Both the position numbers and the translations under genes were made by a program. From sequence record ON528737: 64,000 nt of DNA; one strand, 5' to 3'. This DNA is from Shigella phage ESh27. The notes below the pieces were generated by a model. That model did not search any database and was not told the origin of the DNA. It saw nothing but the letters and a program-made list of their open reading frames with translations. Positions 10,968 to 34,648 of the stretch are shown here, one piece after another; within the stretch, counting starts at the first letter, position 1, and each line of letters opens with the position of its first letter.

Positions 10968-11441
10968 ATGTTATTATCAGGCGCAAAATATAAAGAAGAA
11001 AAACAAAAATTTTATGATGCACAGAACGGTAAGTGTCCTATTTGCCGCCGTGAATTAGACTCTGATGTTCAAGGTAACCATCTTGACCACGACCATGAAT
11101 TAAACGGGCCAAAAGCCGGTAGAGTTCGTGGATTACTCTGTAATCTGTGCAACGCAGCAGAAGGTCAAATGAAGCATAAGTTCAACCGTTCCGGTTTGAA
11201 AGGTCAAAACGTTGATTACTTAGAATGGCTTGAAGCTCTTCTTGCTTATTTGAAACAAGATTATTCTGATAATAATATCCATCCTAATTTTGTTCCGGAT
11301 AAAACTAAAGAGTTCTCAAGACTAGGTAAAGAGGAAATGATGACCGAGATGCTTCAAAGAGGATTTGAATATAATGAATCTGATACTAAAACACAATTAA
11401 TAGCTTCATTCAAAAAGCAGCTTAGAAAGAGTTTAAAATGA
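10968..11441 (+). CDS. 49: endonuclease VII (Holliday junction resolvase)
   Basis: 157 aa; matches remembered T4 gp49 (HLDHDHELNGPKAG.VRGLLCNLCNAAEG). Confidence 0.85.
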   Translation: MLLSGAKYKEEKQKFYDAQNGKCPICRRELDSDVQGNHLDHDHELNGPKAGRVRGLLCNLCNAAEGQMKHKFNRSGLKGQNVDYLEWLEALLAYLKQDYSDNNIHPNFVPDKTKEFSRLGKEEMMTEMLQRGFEYNESDTKTQLIASFKKQLRKSLK

Positions 11442-13255
11442 AAATTGAAAAAGAAATTGAAGGATTAATTTATAAAACTAATAAAGACCTTTTAAACGAG
11501 AATGCTAATAAAGATTCTCGTGTTTTTCCAACTCAACGGGACCTTATGGCTGGTATTGTGTCTAAGCACATTGCCAAAAATATGGTCCCGTCTTTTATTA
11601 TGAATGCGCATGAAAGTGGAATTATCCACATGCATGATATTGATTATTCTCCTGCTCTTCCATTTACTAATTGCTGTTTAGTCGATTTAAAGGGGATGCT
11701 TGAGAATGGTTTTAAATTAGGCAATGCTCAAATCGAAACGCCTAAATCAATTGGTGTTGCTACTGCAATTATGGCACAAATTACTGCACAAGTTGCTTCC
11801 CATCAATACGGCGGAACGACTTTTGCTAATGTAGATAAAGTACTTTCTCCTTATGTTAAACGCACCTATGCAAAACATATTGAGGACGCAGAAAAATGGC
11901 AAATCGCTGATGCGTTGAATTATGCTCAATCTAAAACAGAAAAAGACGTATACGATGCATTCCAAGCTTATGAATATGAAGTAAATACTCTCTTTAGTTC
12001 AAATGGACAAACGCCTTTTGTAACAATTACATTTGGTATGGGAACCGATTGGACTGAACGAATGATTCAGAAAGCAATTCTGAAAAATCGGATTAAAGGT
12101 CTTGGACGTGATGGGATAACTCCTATTTTCCCTAAACTTGTTATGTTCATTGAAGAAGGTGTTAATCTTTATAAAGATGATCCAAATTATGATATTAAAC
12201 AACTTGCGTTAGAATGTGCAAGCAAAAGAATGTATCCTGACATCATTTCGGTTAAGAATAATAAAGCTATTACTGGTTCTTCAGTTCCAGTTTCTCCAAT
12301 GGGTTGCCGTAGTTTCTTGAGTGTGTGGAAAGATTCGACCGGTAATGAAATTCTTGATGGACGTAATAATCTAGGTGTTGTAACGCTGAATCTTCCTCGC
12401 ATCGCGTTAGATTCTTATATTGGAACACAGTTCAATGAACAGAAATTTGTTGAGCTATTTAATGAACGAATGGATCTGTGCTTTGAAGCCTTGATGTGCA
12501 GAATTAGTTCTTTAAAGGGTGTTAAAGCAACTGTAGCTCCTATTCTTTACCAAGAAGGTGCATTCGGTGTTCGTCTTAAACCTGATGATGATATAATTGA
12601 GTTATTTAAAAACGGTAGAAGTTCAGTGTCTTTAGGATACATTGGTATTCATGAATTGAATATTCTTGTTAGTCGTGATATTGGACAAGAAATTTTAACT
12701 AAAATGAATGCTCATCTTAAACAGTGGACTGAAAGAACTGGATTTGCTTTTAGTTTATATTCGACTCCTGCTGAAAACCTTTGTTATCGCTTCTGTAAAC
12801 TTGATACAGAAAAATACGGAAGTGTAAAAGATGTTACCGATAAAGGCTGGTACACTAATAGTTTCCACGTTTCAGTAGAAGAAAATATTACTCCGTTTGA
12901 AAAGATTTCTCGTGAAGCGCCATATCATTTCATTGCGACAGGTGGTCACATTTCTTATGTTGAACTTCCTGATATGAAAAATAACCTAAAAGGTCTTGAG
13001 GCTGTCTGGGATTATGCTGCACAACATTTAGATTATTTTGGTGTTAATATGCCAGTGGATAAATGTTTTACATGCGGAAGTACTCATGAAATGACTCCTA
13101 CTGAAAACGGATTTGTTTGTTCAGTTTGCGGAGAAACTGATCCTAAAAAGATGAACACTATAAGAAGGACGTGCGGTTATTTGGGAAATCCGAACGAACG
13201 CGGATTTAATCTCGGTAAAAATAAAGAAATCATGCATAGGGTTAAACACCAATGA
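11438..13255 (+). CDS. nrdD: anaerobic ribonucleoside-triphosphate reductase
   Basis: 605 aa; C-terminal glycyl-radical motif RTCGYLG and Zn-ribbon; uninterrupted (no intron). Confidence 0.9.
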   Translation: MKIEKEIEGLIYKTNKDLLNENANKDSRVFPTQRDLMAGIVSKHIAKNMVPSFIMNAHESGIIHMHDIDYSPALPFTNCCLVDLKGMLENGFKLGNAQIETPKSIGVATAIMAQITAQVASHQYGGTTFANVDKVLSPYVKRTYAKHIEDAEKWQIADALNYAQSKTEKDVYDAFQAYEYEVNTLFSSNGQTPFVTITFGMGTDWTERMIQKAILKNRIKGLGRDGITPIFPKLVMFIEEGVNLYKDDPNYDIKQLALECASKRMYPDIISVKNNKAITGSSVPVSPMGCRSFLSVWKDSTGNEILDGRNNLGVVTLNLPRIALDSYIGTQFNEQKFVELFNERMDLCFEALMCRISSLKGVKATVAPILYQEGAFGVRLKPDDDIIELFKNGRSSVSLGYIGIHELNILVSRDIGQEILTKMNAHLKQWTERTGFAFSLYSTPAENLCYRFCKLDTEKYGSVKDVTDKGWYTNSFHVSVEENITPFEKISREAPYHFIATGGHISYVELPDMKNNLKGLEAVWDYAAQHLDYFGVNMPVDKCFTCGSTHEMTPTENGFVCSVCGETDPKKMNTIRRTCGYLGNPNERGFNLGKNKEIMHRVKHQ

Positions 13256-28097: not shown

Positions 28098-28733
28098 ATG
28101 AAAACTACTCCTATTACTATCGCTATTGACGCAATCATAAAACAAGCTTCTTCTTTGGCCGCTATGGCCAAAGTAATTAGTCAAAACCCTGCTCGTTATA
28201 ATGTTATTCTAGAAACACTTCGACGCCCTGGACTGAGTAATTATGAAAGTCGTGTAATTATTACAGGTGTTGGTAAGAACGCTAATATCGCAACTAAAGC
28301 TTCTGAGACATTTGCTTCACTCGGTATCCCAAGTATGTACTTGAACACCGGGCATTATTCTCACGGTGATGCAGGATTTATTGCGCCTAATGATGTGTTG
28401 ATTCATATTAGTCGTTCTGGTAAGACTGAAGAAATGATAGGTGTTGCTAAACATCTTCGTATGATTCGTCCTCAGGTTAAACAGATTCTGTTACATTGTA
28501 ACCCTGACATTCCACAAGAATACGAAGCTCTTTTTGATTATACGTTCTGTACCGGTATCGCGGTAGAAGTTGACGAGAACTCTTTAGCTCCGACTATGTC
28601 CACTACATTGTTGTTAGCGCTTATCGATACGTTTGCTATCAACCTTTCGTCTGAACGTGGATTTACCTCTAATGACTTCCTTAAGTTCCACCCTGGCGGT
28701 GCACTAGGTGCCATGTTACGAGGCGAACAATGA
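28098..28733 (+). CDS. SIS-domain sugar-phosphate isomerase (KdsD-like arabinose-5-phosphate isomerase)
   Basis: 211 aa; GVGKNANIATKASETFASLGIPS...HGDAG...ISRSGKTEE matches the KdsD/GutQ SIS-domain pattern; no CBS domain. Confidence 0.7.
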   Translation: MKTTPITIAIDAIIKQASSLAAMAKVISQNPARYNVILETLRRPGLSNYESRVIITGVGKNANIATKASETFASLGIPSMYLNTGHYSHGDAGFIAPNDVLIHISRSGKTEEMIGVAKHLRMIRPQVKQILLHCNPDIPQEYEALFDYTFCTGIAVEVDENSLAPTMSTTLLLALIDTFAINLSSERGFTSNDFLKFHPGGALGAMLRGEQ

Positions 28734-28873
28734 AAGCAATAACAATAGGACTTTTACTATTGATGCTTGTCATGACTATCTACTGGAGCTTAACGGCTCC
28801 GGTAATGATTCCAACACTTGTAATTGGATGGATTATGATTGGTCTACAGGCAAAGTATGAATGCTTTAACTAG
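28730..28873 (+). CDS. hypothetical small membrane protein
   Basis: 47 aa, two hydrophobic segments; ATGA overlap with SIS gene stop; read by eye. Confidence 0.35.
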   Translation: MKAITIGLLLLMLVMTIYWSLTAPVMIPTLVIGWIMIGLQAKYECFN

Positions 28874-28914
28874 AATAGTGTACAATACACCTACTTACCA
28901 ATGAGGACTTCAAC

Positions 28915-30600
28915 ATGAAAAAAGCTGTTATTCTTGGTGCTGGATTGGCAACTCGTTTATATCCAATTACTCACCATATTCCAAAAGTTCTTGTGAACTA
29001 TAAACAAGACACTATTCTGAGCAATTTGTATACAATTTATTCTGACCTTGGCGCAGATGAAATTATTGTAGTAGTTCATTCAAAATTTGCTGAAACCGTT
29101 CGAGCTTATTGTGAGCAAGAAGGGTTCAATGTGACTATTCGTACAGTTGATGAAGCGTATGGTTCTGCTTATGCTCTTGCTAAATTACACAAAGATTTAG
29201 ACGGCCATAACGTAGTTGTTAACTGGTGCGATATTATTCCTGATTTTGGTTCATGGTCTTGGAATGTTAACGCAATCTATGTTAAGGGTGATGAATGTCG
29301 ATATAATTTCGATGGTGAAAATATCACTAACGTAGGTTCAACAGGCGGTAATGTTGTAGGAATTTATCAGTTCAAAGACTGGGAATTCTATATGGGTTCT
29401 ACTGATGAGGAAATTCATGAATACTGCAAAGGACGTGATTTCGTAGAATTCCTTTACAGCAGCGCATTCAATAAATCAGAGCTTATGAATCTAATTGATT
29501 TAGGTGATATGCCTAAACTTGAAAAAGCTCATGAAGTTCGTGAACTTAATCGTAGTTTTAATGCAGTTGAAATTGGTGAAGAAACTGTAACTAAATTCGC
29601 ATTAACTGAACAAGGTCGAGCTCTTCAAAAAGATGAGATTTCATGGTATTTGAAAGTGAAATCAGATTCAGTCCCTCAGTTAGTTTCTGTTAATGAAAAT
29701 AACTTTGAAATGGAACGCATTAAAGGTAAGCCAGCATTTGAATATATTAAATCCAAATCAAGTCTTGCTCGTCCACAAATTGTTGATGCAATTTTAGATG
29801 CACTGAAATTCAGCACAGACATTTATTTTGTAAGTCCTGAAACTGTTCGTCGTGATTTCACTAAAGAATTCTATACGAAAGTTATTGATCGTTGTGAAAG
29901 CATTCAACCATTGATTGATTCATTTGGTAAAATCACACATGTGAACTACACTAAGATTGGACGTCTGAAGCCAATGCTGAAACAAGCTTTAGAACATCTT
30001 ATTCGTTATCATAACCGTTCTCAGGGACAGTACTCTGTTATTCATGGTGACCCAAACTTCAGTAATACTATGATTACCGATAACGGCGAAGTCAAGTTTA
30101 TCGACCCTCGTGGATATTTTGGTGAAACCAAGATTTACGGGCCAAAATTGTATGATGAAGCTAAAGTGCTTTATGCTGTTTCAGGTTATGATGAATTCAA
30201 CGCTAATCCGACCTGGGGCCAGTTTATTATTGATGAAACAACTTGTAATGTGACTATTAACATCAATCCATTAGTTTACAAATATGGAAAGATGAGTTCG
30301 TTTAACGAGTATCATCATTTGGCAGTGGCAATTATCTGGATTGCATTAGGTGGTTATTTCAAGAATAATCCACTTAAAGCGGTAGCCGCATATTATAAAG
30401 GTATGGAACTTCTAACTAAGCAATTACGTAACATGGGCCGTGTACTTCAAGATGGCTCTATTAGTTATGACGTAGCAGAACCTGTAACGGCTACTCTGAT
30501 TACAAAAAATCCTGGTAAATGGGTACTAACTGATAAAGAAACTGGTGTTTCCTATCGTCCAATCGGTGGCGATATCACTCATCAATGGGAACGAATCTAA
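28915..30600 (+). CDS. bifunctional sugar-1-phosphate nucleotidyltransferase / sugar kinase (putative)
   Basis: 561 aa; N-terminal GxGxR nucleotidyltransferase motif (AVILGAGLATRLYP...PKVLV); C-terminal APH/choline-kinase-like HGDPNFSN...FIDPRG. Confidence 0.7.
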   Translation: MKKAVILGAGLATRLYPITHHIPKVLVNYKQDTILSNLYTIYSDLGADEIIVVVHSKFAETVRAYCEQEGFNVTIRTVDEAYGSAYALAKLHKDLDGHNVVVNWCDIIPDFGSWSWNVNAIYVKGDECRYNFDGENITNVGSTGGNVVGIYQFKDWEFYMGSTDEEIHEYCKGRDFVEFLYSSAFNKSELMNLIDLGDMPKLEKAHEVRELNRSFNAVEIGEETVTKFALTEQGRALQKDEISWYLKVKSDSVPQLVSVNENNFEMERIKGKPAFEYIKSKSSLARPQIVDAILDALKFSTDIYFVSPETVRRDFTKEFYTKVIDRCESIQPLIDSFGKITHVNYTKIGRLKPMLKQALEHLIRYHNRSQGQYSVIHGDPNFSNTMITDNGEVKFIDPRGYFGETKIYGPKLYDEAKVLYAVSGYDEFNANPTWGQFIIDETTCNVTININPLVYKYGKMSSFNEYHHLAVAIIWIALGGYFKNNPLKAVAAYYKGMELLTKQLRNMGRVLQDGSISYDVAEPVTATLITKNPGKWVLTDKETGVSYRPIGGDITHQWERI

Positions 30601-30986
30601 TGCACCGTGTAGAAAACATGCTTAATCTTTGTTTTGATGTCGATGATTGTATAACAGAGTGGAATAACAATCGTGATTATGTGAACTTCAAACCGGACGT
30701 CGAAATGGTGTCCGCCATTAATGCCCTGTATGATGCAGGGCACACCATAACGCTTTACACGGCTCGTGGTATGAAGTCTGTAGGACCTGGTCGTATAGCA
30801 ATTGACATTCTCCCGAGTCTGATTCAGAACTTGGAAAACATTGGTTTGAAGTACCATAATTTGCTAACACATAAACCAGTATATGATTGGATTATCGACG
30901 ACAAAGCTATGCGTCCTGACGAATTCAAAGCTCTTATGAATAAAGGCGAATTCGAAACATTTAAATCATATAAACCGAATCTATAA
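30600..30986 (+). CDS. HAD-like phosphatase (putative)
   Basis: 128 aa; N-terminal FDVDDCIT resembles HAD motif I (imperfect); TAATG overlap with upstream gene. Confidence 0.5.
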   Translation: MHRVENMLNLCFDVDDCITEWNNNRDYVNFKPDVEMVSAINALYDAGHTITLYTARGMKSVGPGRIAIDILPSLIQNLENIGLKYHNLLTHKPVYDWIIDDKAMRPDEFKALMNKGEFETFKSYKPNL

Positions 30987-31043
30987 TAATTTAAGTAAGA
31001 CCTGCAAAAACCATCGCATCAATTAACGTGAGATGCAAAAAAA

Positions 31044-32204
31044 ATGAATACTTTTAAAATCGGAACGAATTTTGATTTAGCTCTTCTTGATAAAATCGTA
31101 GAGCTCAATAAAACCTATCCTAATAGCTTGATAAACGAAGTATATGGCTCTACAAGAGAAATGGCTTTTGTAGCAGCCAGACCTGATTTTAGGCTTCCTG
31201 ACGTCGACAAAAAGATGTTAGAAGACTATGTTAAACGTTGTAACGAATTAGGTATTTGCTTTAACTATACACTCAACACGATAAATCCTGGTTCAAAAAG
31301 AGAACTAGTTGAGTGGAAGAAGAAAGCTATTCAGGATTATGTTCAGTATCTTTGGTCAATAGGCGTATGGCGTATTACTATCGCTAACCCTGTTGTTATG
31401 GAAATTGTTCGTGAAGTCAATAAAGATATTGAGATTGAAGTTTCAACAATTCTACATGTTGATGCCGTAACTCAAATCAAATACTTACACGACCAATATA
31501 ACATCAAAAAGGTCTGCTGTGGAATTCATAAGAACCGTTCAGTTTCTTTCCTGAAGCGTGCAGCAGAGTTTTGCAATAAGAACAATATAATATTTGAAGT
31601 TCTTGTAAATGAGTTCTGTTCTAATGCTGGTAAAGGGTATACAACACATTGTAGCTATCGTGACTCTTGCTATATTTTCCATAGTACTGATGTTACAGCT
31701 GATGATGCTAAATCCTTAAATGGATATCCAATGCAACACTGCATTAAAGCTCGTGATACAGACCCATTTAACTGGCTGAGAACTCGTTTTGTTCGTCCTC
31801 AAGATTTGAAACTTTATAATGATATTGGTATCACTCAATTCAAAGTTTCAGGACGTACAGGTAGCACAGACTACATTTTGAAAGTTCTTGAAGCATACGC
31901 TTCTGAAAAGTTTGAAGGTAATTTGTTAGAACTGTGGAAGCCTTTAGAGACTATTTTCACTCTTGAAAATGAGACTGAGTTTTCACATACAGTAAATATT
32001 GAAACCTCTTTGTTAGATGGCTTTTTAGAAAAAAGGTGGTTCAGACATCCGGATTTTGATTGTGCTAATGAAATCTGTGGGTCAACGTGTACATATTGTG
32101 AAAGATATTATAAACGTCAATTATCTAAAAATGGGTTAGCAGAAAACTCTATATCTATTATTGATATAACTAACTCTGATGACGCTTTGAGGTACCCGGA
32201 ATGA
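31044..32204 (+). CDS. hypothetical protein with Cys-rich C-terminus
   Basis: 386 aa; C-terminal CANEICGSTCTYCERY plus earlier NEFCSNAG...HCSYRDSCY; family not assigned. Confidence 0.6.
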   Translation: MNTFKIGTNFDLALLDKIVELNKTYPNSLINEVYGSTREMAFVAARPDFRLPDVDKKMLEDYVKRCNELGICFNYTLNTINPGSKRELVEWKKKAIQDYVQYLWSIGVWRITIANPVVMEIVREVNKDIEIEVSTILHVDAVTQIKYLHDQYNIKKVCCGIHKNRSVSFLKRAAEFCNKNNIIFEVLVNEFCSNAGKGYTTHCSYRDSCYIFHSTDVTADDAKSLNGYPMQHCIKARDTDPFNWLRTRFVRPQDLKLYNDIGITQFKVSGRTGSTDYILKVLEAYASEKFEGNLLELWKPLETIFTLENETEFSHTVNIETSLLDGFLEKRWFRHPDFDCANEICGSTCTYCERYYKRQLSKNGLAENSISIIDITNSDDALRYPE

Positions 32205-32440
32205 TTTCTAGAAAAACTTTTAACCACCAACTTAATGAAGAGATTTTGACTATAAAACTGAACACTAACGAACAAATTCTTAAAAAGGCCCTGATGGGCC
32301 TGTTTGAAACTAAAGCGGCTAAAGTGATTAAAGAACCTGTTCAACTAGAATATTATGCTGATGCATTTCTTCATAGTGTTCTTGGAAGTATCGATGCTGA
32401 AGCTTTACGTTATATCAACATTGTCAAGAAATTCAAATAA
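32201..32440 (+). CDS. hypothetical protein
   Basis: 79 aa; ATGA overlap. Confidence 0.45.
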   Translation: MISRKTFNHQLNEEILTIKLNTNEQILKKALMGLFETKAAKVIKEPVQLEYYADAFLHSVLGSIDAEALRYINIVKKFK

Positions 32441-32470
32441 GCTTTACGAATTGAGTATATAATAAATTGT
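32440..32470 (+). promoter_or_regulatory. middle-type promoter candidate
   Basis: aGCTTTAc followed by TATATAAT upstream of gene 42. Confidence 0.3.
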
Positions 32471-32482
32471 ATTGAGGTAAAC

Positions 32483-33199
32483 ATGGGAAAACATAACACA
32501 ATGAAATATATCAAAGCCGCAGATTTTCAAACCGCATTTAAAGCAGTCAATCGTGAAATTTTAGAAAACCCGGAATTCGTAACTGATTCTCGTATTGGAC
32601 GTTGTAATGAAATTGGGTCTATGACCGTAGTTGTTGACACTCCATCATCATTCAAAATGACCGACCCACGTATTAATCGCATCTCTTATGAATATGCCGA
32701 AGACTTCTGGAAGTTTATGATTTCTGGTGGTACCAACGCAGAAGAAGCGTTTAAGGCATATCCTAATGTCGCTAAATTTATTTCTAAACCAAAATCAGAT
32801 GTTTTGCCGGCGAACTTCAACACTTTCTATGGTCCTCGCATTGCGGCCCAATTACCAGCTCTTCTCAAAGAACTTAAAGAGAAGCCTAACTCTCGAAGAG
32901 TTGTGTTCCAAATTCTAGAAAGTTCTGATCAGGCTTTGCTTGATTCAGACGAAACACTTGAATATCCATGTACTGACTCAGTGACTTATTATATTCGTGA
33001 TGGTAAGCTTTATACACACTGTCATATGCGTTCTCAGAACTGTGCTGTTGTTATGCAGTTGGATTTTTATCTCCAAGGAAAATTACTTCATTATATCGCT
33101 AACGAATGTGGTGTAGAAGTTGGTGATTATACTCATACCATGGTAAGTGCCCATGTGTTTGAACGTGATTTTGATTATGTTAAAGGATTCCTTGACTAA
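32483..33199 (+). CDS. 42: dCMP hydroxymethylase gp42 (thymidylate-synthase fold)
   Basis: 238 aa; active-site region PCTDSVTYYIRDGKLYTHCHMRSQNCAVVMQLDF parallels T4 gp42 / thymidylate synthase. Confidence 0.8.
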   Translation: MGKHNTMKYIKAADFQTAFKAVNREILENPEFVTDSRIGRCNEIGSMTVVVDTPSSFKMTDPRINRISYEYAEDFWKFMISGGTNAEEAFKAYPNVAKFISKPKSDVLPANFNTFYGPRIAAQLPALLKELKEKPNSRRVVFQILESSDQALLDSDETLEYPCTDSVTYYIRDGKLYTHCHMRSQNCAVVMQLDFYLQGKLLHYIANECGVEVGDYTHTMVSAHVFERDFDYVKGFLD

Positions 33200-34098
33200 T
33201 GGCTATTTTCCGCGTACCAATCTTGAGTATGCGGTCTTATGAAACTGGACAGTATGCTATCCTTAAGGATGGCAACTTCCAACTTCATTTGCACCGTGCT
33301 AATCCAGGCGATGTGATTACATATCCACGTAATGCATCTGATATTAAAGAATGCGAACGTCTTTTCCCGGAATTTAAGTTTGTTCCATTATGGTATAAAG
33401 ATAACGCGTATAACACTCGTAAATATTTCTGGTCTGAAAACGAATTTGTTGTTGATTCATTAATTGCTTATTATGATTGTGATTTTCTAATCACAGATAT
33501 CACTGGATATGACGGCGCTTTTGATGTAGAATTCAATTTCAATATCACTGCAGACCCTAATAAACCACGTTTTTATATTGACGAATTCTTAAAAACCGAC
33601 ATGTTGTCGGTTAATCGTTCACTTCAAACTACTGTGTTGAATGAACGTCAAAAAGAAGTGCTGGTTAACGCAGGTGCAGACGATAATAAGATTATCGTAA
33701 CGCAGAAAGTTATACGTCCTTCCATCATGCAGCGTCTTGTAGGTGATTTGGCTCCTATTCATGTAGATGGTATTTTTCATCCATTTCGAATTAGTGATCC
33801 GTGTTATCATTTTGAACAAGTGGTTGAATGTGCAATTCAATTAGGTCAACCGCTTTATATAACCGATCCAAATAATAGCTTCGACAGAAATAAGTATCCT
33901 GAAGAAGCGCTGATTCGAATTTTTAAACCAACTAAAACTGAGTACTACCAAATTCTTAAAGGACGTCCGAAGATTCAATATTTCGAAAATCCTGAAGAAG
34001 TATTCCATCCAGGTCTTGGTGAGTTCATCTACTTTAATGCTTTAATTTCTTCGCCGTATAATATACCTAAATACGAAGATGTCGTAATCGAGGAATAA
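33199..34098 (+). CDS. hypothetical protein occupying the beta-glucosyltransferase position
   Basis: 299 aa between gene 42 and uvsX; no recognisable similarity to T4 beta-gt. Confidence 0.6.
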   Translation: MAIFRVPILSMRSYETGQYAILKDGNFQLHLHRANPGDVITYPRNASDIKECERLFPEFKFVPLWYKDNAYNTRKYFWSENEFVVDSLIAYYDCDFLITDITGYDGAFDVEFNFNITADPNKPRFYIDEFLKTDMLSVNRSLQTTVLNERQKEVLVNAGADDNKIIVTQKVIRPSIMQRLVGDLAPIHVDGIFHPFRISDPCYHFEQVVECAIQLGQPLYITDPNNSFDRNKYPEEALIRIFKPTKTEYYQILKGRPKIQYFENPEEVFHPGLGEFIYFNALISSPYNIPKYEDVVIEE

Positions 34099-34099
34099 A

Positions 34100-34648
34100 A
34101 TGGCTAAAATTATTTTAGTAGATGGCCCGGATAATGCCGGTAAAACAACTTTCATTAATGACATAATGGAAATTAGTGAAAGATATGTAAAGATTGATTT
34201 CCCTAAACGAACAGTTGATGGACGTTTCGATGTTAAGTCTCGAAATGAAGTTGGTTGTTTCGAAACGATGTTGAATTATTTAGACCCTACTAAGATTTAT
34301 CTGTTAGACCGTGGATATATTAGTAACTGGGTTTATGGACGTATTCGACAAGATGCGGACTCGGTTCTTGACGTTTATGAACAGGATTATGTTCGTCTTT
34401 GTCAAAACCATGATGTGTTCACAATTATTTTAACACGTAACGAAATGACTGAAAGTTTTGAAGACGACCTTATTACTTTGTCTTCATTCGGTTTTAATAC
34501 AGTCATTTCACATTTTGAAGAGTTTGCAATTCATAACAAAATCCAAACGTATCAATTACTTAATCATGATGGTGCTAACAAAGTTATAGGATTTAATGCA
34601 AGCGAACGTAATGATTTGATTACAGAAATTATCAAATGGGCTCGTTAA
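34100..34648 (+). CDS. P-loop NMP-kinase-like protein (thymidylate-kinase fold)
   Basis: 182 aa; Walker A GPDNAGKTT and DRGY motif like TMPK DR(Y/H). Confidence 0.55.
   Translation: MAKIILVDGPDNAGKTTFINDIMEISERYVKIDFPKRTVDGRFDVKSRNEVGCFETMLNYLDPTKIYLLDRGYISNWVYGRIRQDADSVLDVYEQDYVRLCQNHDVFTIILTRNEMTESFEDDLITLSSFGFNTVISHFEEFAIHNKIQTYQLLNHDGANKVIGFNASERNDLITEIIKWAR

Follow-up and report, generated by a model that had tools for sequence, protein, structure and literature searches.

Background

Two descriptions of phage DNA bearing arabinosyl-5-hydroxycytosine appeared in 2025-26, and they reportedly assign the hydroxylation of the base to an O2-dependent flavoenzyme. In phage RB69 and in Acinetobacter phage DLP3, cytosine is replaced by mono- or poly-arabinosylated 5-hydroxycytosine (5hoC), which in DLP3 takes the form of tri-arabinosyl-5hoC (PMC13326640). 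The thymidylate synthase (ThyA) homolog of RB69, gp48, makes the 5-hydroxy derivative (5hodCMP) of deoxycytidine monophosphate (dCMP), with 18O from 18O2 being incorporated and a flavin co-purifying, while uridine diphosphate arabinose (UDP-arabinose) is accounted for by an isomerase, a kinase/pyrophosphorylase and a phosphatase (PMC13326640). Phages of this group encode a deoxycytidine triphosphatase (dCTPase) as well (PMC13326640, Table 1). In this study I analyse another gene of the same cluster, in a stretch of 64,000 nucleotides from Shigella phage ESh27 (sequence record ON528737), here called the window. It encodes a protein of 386 amino acids (aa) that belongs to the U32 family, and I refer to it as the U32 gene. 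Its RB69 ortholog, RB69p050, figures in the cited work as a table entry only ('sugar or heterocycle reductase', fold match 5d88) without further discussion, and the cluster listed for DLP3 has no U32 homolog; the discussion there does mention other pyrimidine hydroxylation pathways, by way of papers on RlhA in rRNA and on 5-hydroxyuridine (ho5U) in tRNA, without tying them to the U32 gene (PMC13326640).

Among the characterised U32 proteins, RlhA is needed for 5-hydroxycytidine (ho5C) at position 2501 of the 23S rRNA (ho5C2501; PMC5727448), TrhP for ho5U34 in tRNA (PMC6599085) and UbiU/UbiV for three anaerobic hydroxylations in the synthesis of ubiquinone (PMC10990095), so that two of these chemistries, those of RlhA and TrhP, target C5 of a pyrimidine. 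All of them depend on prephenate and on iron-sulfur (Fe-S) clusters or their biogenesis, and for each system an O2-dependent counterpart exists or the system works anaerobically (PMC5727448, PMC6599085, PMC10990095). For ubiquinone, prephenate was proven to be the oxygen donor by 18O labelling, and UbiU and UbiV bind a [4Fe-4S] cluster through four cysteines, a motif found in most U32 proteins (PMC10990095). RlhA cannot do without C169, C176 and two C-terminal cysteines, and its E161A variant yields no more than a trace of ho5C (PMC5727448). Anaerobes have TrhP, aerobes have TrhO, and facultative organisms possess the two together (PMC6599085). The catalytic mechanism of the supposed peptidase activity of U32 proteins is unknown (PMC5727448).

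Results

The family membership, the fold, the conserved cysteines, the gene linkage and the distribution of the phage U32 protein are directly supported by the observations below. From these I infer, at slightly better than even probability, that it is an O2-independent, prephenate-dependent cytosine C5 hydroxylase, an Fe-S enzyme with dCMP as its most probable substrate.

The protein matches Pfam PF01136 (Peptidase_U32) with 42.2 bits over residues 94-286 (threshold 22.4), which is its only Pfam match, and phrog_5757 over its full length; all but three of the 120 homologs listed carry PF01136 too. The original prediction, which was made from the letters of the stretch without database searches, had assigned the protein to an unknown family, and this part has to be given up, as the label 'U32 peptidase' is also present in many GenBank records and was given to RB69 ORF050c as early as 2006. 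Fold comparison identifies a TIM barrel as in 5d88, the sole solved U32 structure; a sequence search of the PDB with the U32 protein returned nothing meaningful, and the link to 5d88 is by fold comparison only. A profile search of 1.84 billion cluster representatives yielded 1,704 relatives at E<=1e-3, 489 of these at E<=1e-30. When the profile of the phage family was aligned by hhalign with the four paralogs of E. coli, RlhA scored best (probability 87%, residues 54-285), and TrhP reached a probability of 26% in an alignment confined to TrhP residues 2-138 instead of its full length. The sole NCBIfam match is to the UbiU model, at 18.5 bits far below the cutoff of 440. No NCBIfam match to RlhA or TrhP was obtained, no DUF3656 or other extra domain was detected in the protein, no second U32 or SCP2-type gene is found among its neighbours in the window, and PADLOC gave no defence-system match for it. 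An RlhA ortholog is ruled out by the length of 386 aa versus the architecture of about 650 aa, the lack of DUF3656 and the lack of an NCBIfam RlhA match, and an identity as UbiU or UbiV is ruled out by the low UbiU score, the lack of a paired U32 subunit and the lack of an SCP2-type gene. Judged by its sequence, the phage protein is a divergent enzyme of the U32 family, probably of the Fe-S type, and none of the four E. coli paralogs is its ortholog.

The clustered cysteines noted in the original prediction are indeed present in two places. The C-terminal string CANEICGSTCTYC holds C340, C345, C349 and C352, and an earlier block comprises C192, C203, C209 and C233, plus C158 and C177. The metal or Fe-S site predicted from them was to stand or fall with their conservation in homologs, and they are conserved. 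A comparison of 121 homologs with identities down to 47% shows no variation at C158, C192, C203, C209, C233, C340, C345, C349 or C352 and a conservation of 98% at C177, while the three remaining cysteines vary; the ten conserved cysteines are sufficient for two metal clusters. Among 126 distant full-length cluster representatives, conservation is 99-100% for C192 and C233 and 84-90% for the four C-terminal cysteines, where most of the misses are gaps; 102 of the 126 have four or more cysteines in the C192-C233 segment, spaced as C-x(3-10)-C-x(5-7)-C-x(~21)-C. As this conservation extends over near and distant relatives, the cysteines are far beyond chance. Furthermore, hhalign pairs E190, C203 and C209 with E161, C169 and C176 of RlhA, and all three are invariant in the 121 homologs. 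A metal or Fe-S site is thus supported by the invariance of the cysteines together with membership in a family in which UbiU and UbiV bind [4Fe-4S] through four cysteines (PMC10990095) and RlhA requires its own (PMC5727448).

The most specific gene partner of U32 is chorismate mutase, whose product is prephenate. In phages LC53 (Serratia) and Entb_45 (Enterobacter), the open reading frame (ORF) that overlaps the U32 stop codon encodes a chorismate mutase of type II (Pfam CM_2, 44.6 and 40.9 bits, respectively; threshold 27). A tblastn search with the phage chorismate mutase matched 54 of 50,697 GenBank phage records, and among the matches listed, all phages with chorismate mutase belong to T4-like genera that carry U32. 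The gene adjoins those of U32 and the ThyA homolog or stands between them, and in many cases it overlaps the stop codon of U32; the hosts are Klebsiella, Serratia, Yersinia, Enterobacter, Proteus, Erwinia, Edwardsiella, Providencia, Pectobacterium, Morganella, Kosakonia and Shewanella, along with E. coli in the case of phage EcS1.

In order to follow the gene beyond the T4-like phages, I assembled 56 loci with a U32 homolog, 41 from IMG/VR, 13 from a genome collection and two from metagenome look-ups, in which ORFs were called and clustered. A chorismate mutase domain is encoded in 18 of the 56, nearly always one to three genes away from U32. In divergent phages and contigs of metagenome-assembled genomes (MAGs), whose U32 proteins are 45-55% identical, this is either a stand-alone chorismate mutase or a fusion with 3-deoxy-D-arabino-heptulosonate-7-phosphate (DAHP) synthase, upstream or downstream of U32; the varied arrangements in unrelated phages indicate that the link was assembled in separate phage lineages. 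Fusions of DAHP synthase and chorismate mutase directly adjoin U32 in phage and MAG contigs (L036:6336-7373, L045:9100-10194, L057:6931-7956 and L034:6411-7433), and DAHP synthase alone is found beside it in another (L024:9080-9823). Both enzymes apparently represent auxiliary genes of the shikimate pathway that serve the DNA-modification cluster.

U32 is present in 221 phage records, of which the hosts listed and tallied are all Enterobacterales or Shewanella, and the ThyA homolog in 373, including 57 Acinetobacter, 20 Rhizobium, Agrobacterium, and one Pseudomonas phage. Phages of Enterobacterales and Shewanella mostly have both genes; phages of strict aerobes (Acinetobacter, Rhizobium, Agrobacterium, Pseudomonas) have the ThyA homolog alone, and in Acinetobacter phage Konradin the gene order is that of the window with exactly the U32 slot missing. 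All 13 U32 loci from the genome collection had been assigned by binning to lineages of anaerobes or of the gut (Erysipelotrichales, Oscillospiraceae, Romboutsia, Gastranaerophilaceae, Tannerella, Phocaeicola, Clostridia and others), and none has a ThyA homolog nearby. This three-way pattern, with the ThyA homolog alone, both genes, or U32 alone, parallels that of TrhO and TrhP (PMC6599085). It is imperfect in one direction, as Dhakavirus Bp7 infects E. coli and has the ThyA homolog without U32. The U32 gene is not required for the modification, being absent from the clusters of both Konradin and Bp7; given also that the DNA of DLP3 is modified without a listed U32 homolog, U32 is accessory under aerobic laboratory conditions.

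The divergent loci retain other parts of the pathway. A glycosyltransferase of the arabinosyltransferase-1 family is encoded in 40 of the 56, and many have homologs of the isomerase and full-length homologs of the nucleotidyltransferase-kinase (E 1e-34 to 1e-50). No ThyA-fold protein was detected within 8 kb of U32 in any of the 41 loci that are not T4-like, using an unfiltered hidden Markov model (HMM) of the 5hodCMP synthase, and a motif-limited scan for the signature of this synthase matched none of 26 divergent IMG/VR contigs, some of which measure 127-294 kb. In these phages the sugar donor and the transferase seem to be present, with U32, plus or minus a prephenate supply, in the place of the base hydroxylase. 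In one of the loci from the metagenome look-ups, the neighbours of U32 are a dCMP deaminase, a thymidylate kinase, a uracil-DNA glycosylase and the alpha subunit of DNA polymerase III; in the other they are NT5C, a deoxynucleoside kinase (dNK) and a nucleoside deoxyribosyltransferase.

Eight anaerobe-binned loci and L003 share a four-gene cassette in which GP88, a fusion of guanylate kinase with an S-adenosylmethionine (SAM) methyltransferase, a 267-aa protein and U32 follow one another. Examples are L063:3224-7134 (Phocaeicola faecalis), L054, L060, L061, L062, L064, L065 and L003. The GP88 protein (PF17338) measures about 250 aa, the fusion about 425 aa with a weak PADLOC match to mad2, and the protein of about 267 aa has no Pfam match. 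The cassette could constitute a pathway that hydroxylates and then O-methylates a nucleotide, or be part of a modification or defence system. In L003, as in L004 and L054, a second and more distant U32 paralog is located 4 kb from the first (L003:8001-14360), and this pair is surrounded by NT5C, a nicotinamide mononucleotide transporter, a deoxynucleoside kinase, a gene similar to class II tRNA synthetases, a radical SAM/SPASM protein and a nucleoside deoxyribosyltransferase. When T4-like phages are compared with divergent ones (window 28098-34098 against L024-L059), U32 is 45-55% identical, well above the other shared genes (glycosyltransferase 23-26%, nucleotidyltransferase-kinase 26-31%, isomerase 26-36%), which suggests either an unusually strong constraint or a more recent horizontal transfer.

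The features of the window are collected in Table 1. All genes are on the plus strand, with a GC content of 35-39%, and the 5.3 kb tested are 97-98% identical in nucleotides to Mosigvirus (RB69-like T-even) coliphages such as phiE142 and Bas47 'AlbertHofmann', with the same gene order. The source phage is a Mosigvirus, an RB69-like coliphage with DNA bearing arabinosyl-5-hydroxycytosine.

Table 1. Positions of the features discussed, counted from the first letter of the window
Feature	Position	Strand	Basis or remark
U32-family (Pfam PF01136) protein, 386 aa, RB69 ORF050c ortholog	31044..32204	+	ATG start, TGA stop
Four-Cys block C192-x10-C203-x5-C209-x23-C233, putative [4Fe-4S] site	31617..31742	+	Homolog conservation, RlhA alignment
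C-terminal C340-x4-C345-x3-C349-x2-C352 cluster, putative second Fe-S or Zn site	32061..32099	+	Homolog conservation
Arabinose-5-phosphate isomerase (KdsD/GutQ-like SIS domain)	28098..28733	+	Upstream of U32 gene
Bifunctional sugar-1-phosphate nucleotidyltransferase / kinase (AfhE-like)	28915..30600	+	Homology; PMC13326640
HAD-type phosphatase (AfhF-like)	30585..30986	+	NCBIfam TIGR01689; PMC13326640
79-aa ORF	32201..32440	+	Start overlaps U32 stop by 4 nt (ATGA)
ThyA-like 5hodCMP synthase (RB69 gp48 ortholog)	32483..33199	+	Pfam Thymidylat_synt; RB69 gp48 experiments in PMC13326640
299-aa glycosyltransferase (RB69 gp46:47 ortholog; PMC13326640 name: arabinosyltransferase 1)	33199..34098	+	Position, homology
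Thymidylate-kinase-like nucleotide kinase (RB69 gp45 ortholog)	34100..34648	+	phrog_761; PMC13326640 Table 1
NrdD anaerobic ribonucleotide reductase (glycyl radical enzyme)	11438..13255	+	Pfam NRDD 570.8 bits plus Gly_radical

The U32 ORF is real and lies, as originally described, on the same strand as the isomerase, nucleotidyltransferase-kinase and phosphatase genes around it. Its slot between the phosphatase and the ThyA-like synthase, which is two ORFs downstream, is the orthologous position in the arabinosyl-5hoC cluster (RB69 gp45-gp55 region); a DNA polymerase gene is also located upstream on the same strand, and the UvsX and gp41 helicase genes further downstream. A sigma-70-like match is present at 30960-30987, just upstream of U32, and in a promoter and terminator scan of the region promoter-like sites were not more common than in shuffled sequences. 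Co-transcription of U32 with the sugar genes is plausible. With NrdD in the window, the phage is equipped for O2-free replication.

The 79-aa ORF that is translationally coupled to U32 belongs to a small family in several T4-like genera, and it fills the slot that chorismate mutase occupies in other genera. A diverged chorismate mutase it is not, as it has no Pfam match, an identity of 17-24% and an hhalign probability of 0.3%, and its family coexists with the true chorismate mutase in other genera; the order U32, 79-aa family, chorismate mutase, ThyA homolog is seen in L012, L018, L021 and L025. The N-terminus KINHKLNEEL of its relatives resembles RINHTMNEL in the 40-aa N-terminal extension of the LC53 chorismate mutase (L008:6158-6499), and at the level of sequence this suggests a history of fusion or deletion at the junction of U32 and the 79-aa ORF. 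Between the isomerase and the nucleotidyltransferase-kinase there is a conserved ORF of about 47 aa (window 28730-28873, homologous to Bas47 bas47_0152 and LC53 UYM28696.1), whose LC53 counterpart is annotated with a transmembrane segment. In several genera, a homing endonuclease resembling I-TevI, with NUMOD3 motifs, directly precedes U32 (L013:7361-7996, L017, L020 and L021, and the 'putative endonuclease' of LC53, L008:4352-4990); the window has none.

Discussion

In the proposed mechanism, the TIM barrel of the U32 protein would hold the [4Fe-4S] cluster of the family at the four-cysteine block C192/C203/C209/C233, and C340/C345/C349/C352 would hold a second cluster or zinc. Prephenate would be the oxygen donor, as proposed for RlhA, TrhP and UbiU/V, and dCMP would be converted to 5-hydroxy-dCMP without molecular oxygen. 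The product would then be phosphorylated by the phage kinases, incorporated by the polymerase and arabinosylated by the neighbouring glycosyltransferases. In this way the U32 protein would be to anaerobic infections what the adjacent 5hodCMP synthase, which depends on flavin and O2, is to aerobic ones, a need for an O2-free route being apparent from the fact that this synthase takes its oxygen from O2 while the window encodes NrdD, and by this means a gut phage could keep its DNA hypermodified in anoxic hosts. I regard dCMP as the most likely substrate on three grounds: the compactness of the protein, the mononucleotide enzymes that neighbour it elsewhere, and the dCTPase, which would otherwise leave no C-type triphosphate.

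A more general proposal, to which I give slightly less than an even chance, is that the U32 proteins of phages, in many cases accompanied by a dedicated chorismate mutase or DAHP-synthase/chorismate-mutase fusion, are the first prephenate-dependent and O2-independent hydroxylases of DNA precursors. They would be the sole source of 5-hydroxypyrimidine in phages of obligate anaerobes, where it would then be glycosylated, or O-methylated in the kinase-methyltransferase cassette, and a backup of the ThyA homolog in phages of facultative anaerobes. I propose that they form a distinct U32 subfamily that was recruited to DNA-precursor modification, with a cysteine architecture and a prephenate supply of its own.

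The most serious rival retains the chemistry and places it on the polymer, in that U32 would hydroxylate cytosines of the phage DNA after replication, for instance by patching unmodified ones. The closest characterised relatives, RlhA and TrhP, do act on polynucleotides, and the linkage to chorismate mutase and glycosyltransferase fits equally well. I nevertheless hold this to be unlikely, as the compact protein of 386 aa is without the extra domains of RlhA (DUF3656) or TrhP and a Pfam scan detects no nucleic-acid-binding domain in it, and as the neighbours in other loci (dCMP deaminase, thymidylate-kinase-like proteins, NT5C, dNK, guanylate-kinase fusion) handle mononucleotides. Moreover, the dCTPase removes deoxycytidine triphosphate (PMC13326640, Table 1), so that an anaerobic infection would still be without a polymerisable C-type triphosphate. 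Somewhat less credit is due to a role in the sugar pathway, by modification of arabinose or its nucleotide sugar. The Bas47 record calls the protein a 'putative enzyme involved in UDP-arabinose biosynthesis', the label 'sugar or heterocycle reductase' in PMC13326640 leans the same way, the gene is located between the phosphatase and the base-modifying genes, and it co-occurs with arabinose-5-phosphate isomerase, nucleotidyltransferase-kinase and HAD genes in several unrelated phage lineages. Yet Acinetobacter phages keep the order isomerase, nucleotidyltransferase-kinase, phosphatase, ThyA homolog, glycosyltransferase without U32, and DLP3 makes poly-arabinosyl-5hoC without a listed U32 homolog (PMC13326640). 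The synthesis of UDP-arabinose is already covered by the three other enzymes, no known U32 protein acts on sugars, the chemistry of the family being the hydroxylation of aromatic rings and pyrimidines, and sugar genes are missing altogether from some U32 loci, which are located among genes of nucleotide metabolism instead. A sugar role is therefore disfavoured, the more so as it leaves the linkage to chorismate mutase and DAHP synthase unexplained, and for the same reasons the original prediction of an extra sugar-tailoring step or a transferase is not borne out.

Alternatively, U32 may be a redox partner, that is, an Fe-S electron-transfer protein or reductase that delivers reduced flavin to the ThyA-like synthase. 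The flavin of this synthase is loosely bound and a reductant is required, electron transfer would be a suitable task for two putative clusters, and 'reductase' is the published label (PMC13326640). I consider this quite improbable, because U32 occurs without a ThyA homolog nearby in 41 loci; the ThyA homolog conversely works without U32, in phages as well as upon expression in E. coli, and the link with chorismate mutase would again have no explanation. That the protein boosts ho5U in host tRNA, ho5C in rRNA or anaerobic ubiquinone synthesis during infection would agree with the only known functions of U32 proteins, and yet it is very unlikely, as E. coli already has TrhP, RlhA and UbiU/V, the phage protein fails their NCBIfam models, and U32 is conserved beside DNA-modification and deoxynucleotide genes across very different phages. 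A true collagenase-like peptidase is scarcely credible. It has the family name and GenBank annotations such as 'peptidase' and 'collagenase-like protease' in its favour, but the name is historical, the characterised members act in hydroxylation, and the context is one of nucleotide and DNA modification.

Several points weigh against the favoured hydroxylase. The window, which represents the genus Mosigvirus, has no chorismate mutase in its 64 kb, as judged by HMM scan of the six-frame translation, and here U32 would therefore rely on prephenate from the PheA/TyrA enzymes of the host. U32 is not obligatory in enteric hosts, since it is absent from some E. coli phages that have the ThyA homolog, Dhakavirus Bp7 being one of them. 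In Bp7 (L051), the ThyA homolog, nucleotidyltransferase-kinase, phosphatase and glycosyltransferase are present and both U32 and the arabinose-5-phosphate isomerase are absent; this phage presumably relies on KdsD/GutQ of the host and on oxygen. The similarity to RlhA is modest, the hhalign probability having been obtained with a single sequence, the UbiU match is sub-threshold, and the cysteine spacing differs from that of canonical U32 proteins (RlhA/UbiU). The hosts of MAG contigs are assigned indirectly, the phylogenetic pattern comes from few independent clades, and the absence of the ThyA homolog in divergent phages is that seen in 8-kb flanks and a motif-limited scan. For no member of the U32 family has hydroxylation been reconstituted in vitro (PMC10990095). 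Finally, two papers outside the literature covered, He et al. 2026 (Nat Chem Biol) and Mahler et al. 2025 (Cell Host Microbe), may already assign a function to the gene. The literature covered apart from these contains nothing that links U32 or prephenate to phage DNA modification; a preprint on phage transposon mutagenesis has no data on the U32 gene, which the Thanatos paper leaves undiscussed. Both the gene and its family assignment were known before, and the proposed role as a hydroxylase is found in none of the accessible literature.

Gut bacteria are the hosts of these phages, which encode an anaerobic ribonucleotide reductase, and O2-free DNA modification, which is not addressed in PMC13326640, has in the U32 gene a specific and testable answer. 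If the proposal is true, the substrate is a soluble mononucleotide and the first in vitro reconstitution of U32 chemistry could follow, as a small single-subunit nucleotide enzyme would be a far easier model than the U32 enzymes acting on RNA or lipids. The linked shikimate-pathway genes would in that case represent a new type of phage auxiliary metabolism that serves DNA modification. Whether the DNA is modified under anoxia also bears on phage therapy in the gut.

Comparison with known systems

RlhA (YdcP) shares the U32 domain with the phage protein, and its E161, C169 and C176 align with the invariant E190, C203 and C209; it also has essential C-terminal cysteines, and its chemistry is the hydroxylation of cytosine at C5, dependent on prephenate and on Fe-S biogenesis. 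However, RlhA has 653 aa with DUF3656 and acts on a ribosomal precursor, whereas the phage protein has 386 aa, no DUF3656, a C-x10-C-x5-C-x23-C block and a compact C-x4-C-x3-C-x2-C tail. With Mk0906 of Methanopyrus kandleri (PDB 5d88), the identity is only 11-14%, and this structure of 247 residues has no counterpart of the four C-terminal cysteines. UbiU and UbiV are likewise U32 proteins with four conserved cysteines, and they are paired with O2-dependent flavin hydroxylases (UbiI/H/F), but they form a heterodimer, act on a lipid and need UbiT, and in the window no second U32 subunit stands beside the phage gene.

The ThyA-like 5hodCMP synthases (RB69 gp48, DLP3 gp80 and that of HY126) have the same proposed product, 5-hydroxy-dCMP, and the same position in the pathway, but differ in their thymidylate synthase fold, their flavin cofactor and their use of oxygen from O2; their function is experimental, while that of U32 would follow from its family and gene context. 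The pair TrhP and TrhO is similar in that an O2-independent, prephenate-dependent U32 route and an unrelated O2-dependent route lead to the same 5-hydroxypyrimidine, and its three-way distribution by the oxygen use of the host matches that of the phage U32 and ThyA homolog. It differs in that its substrate is a tRNA uridine and its O2-dependent partner is a rhodanese rather than a flavoenzyme with the ThyA fold, and in the phage case the pairing is a proposed one.

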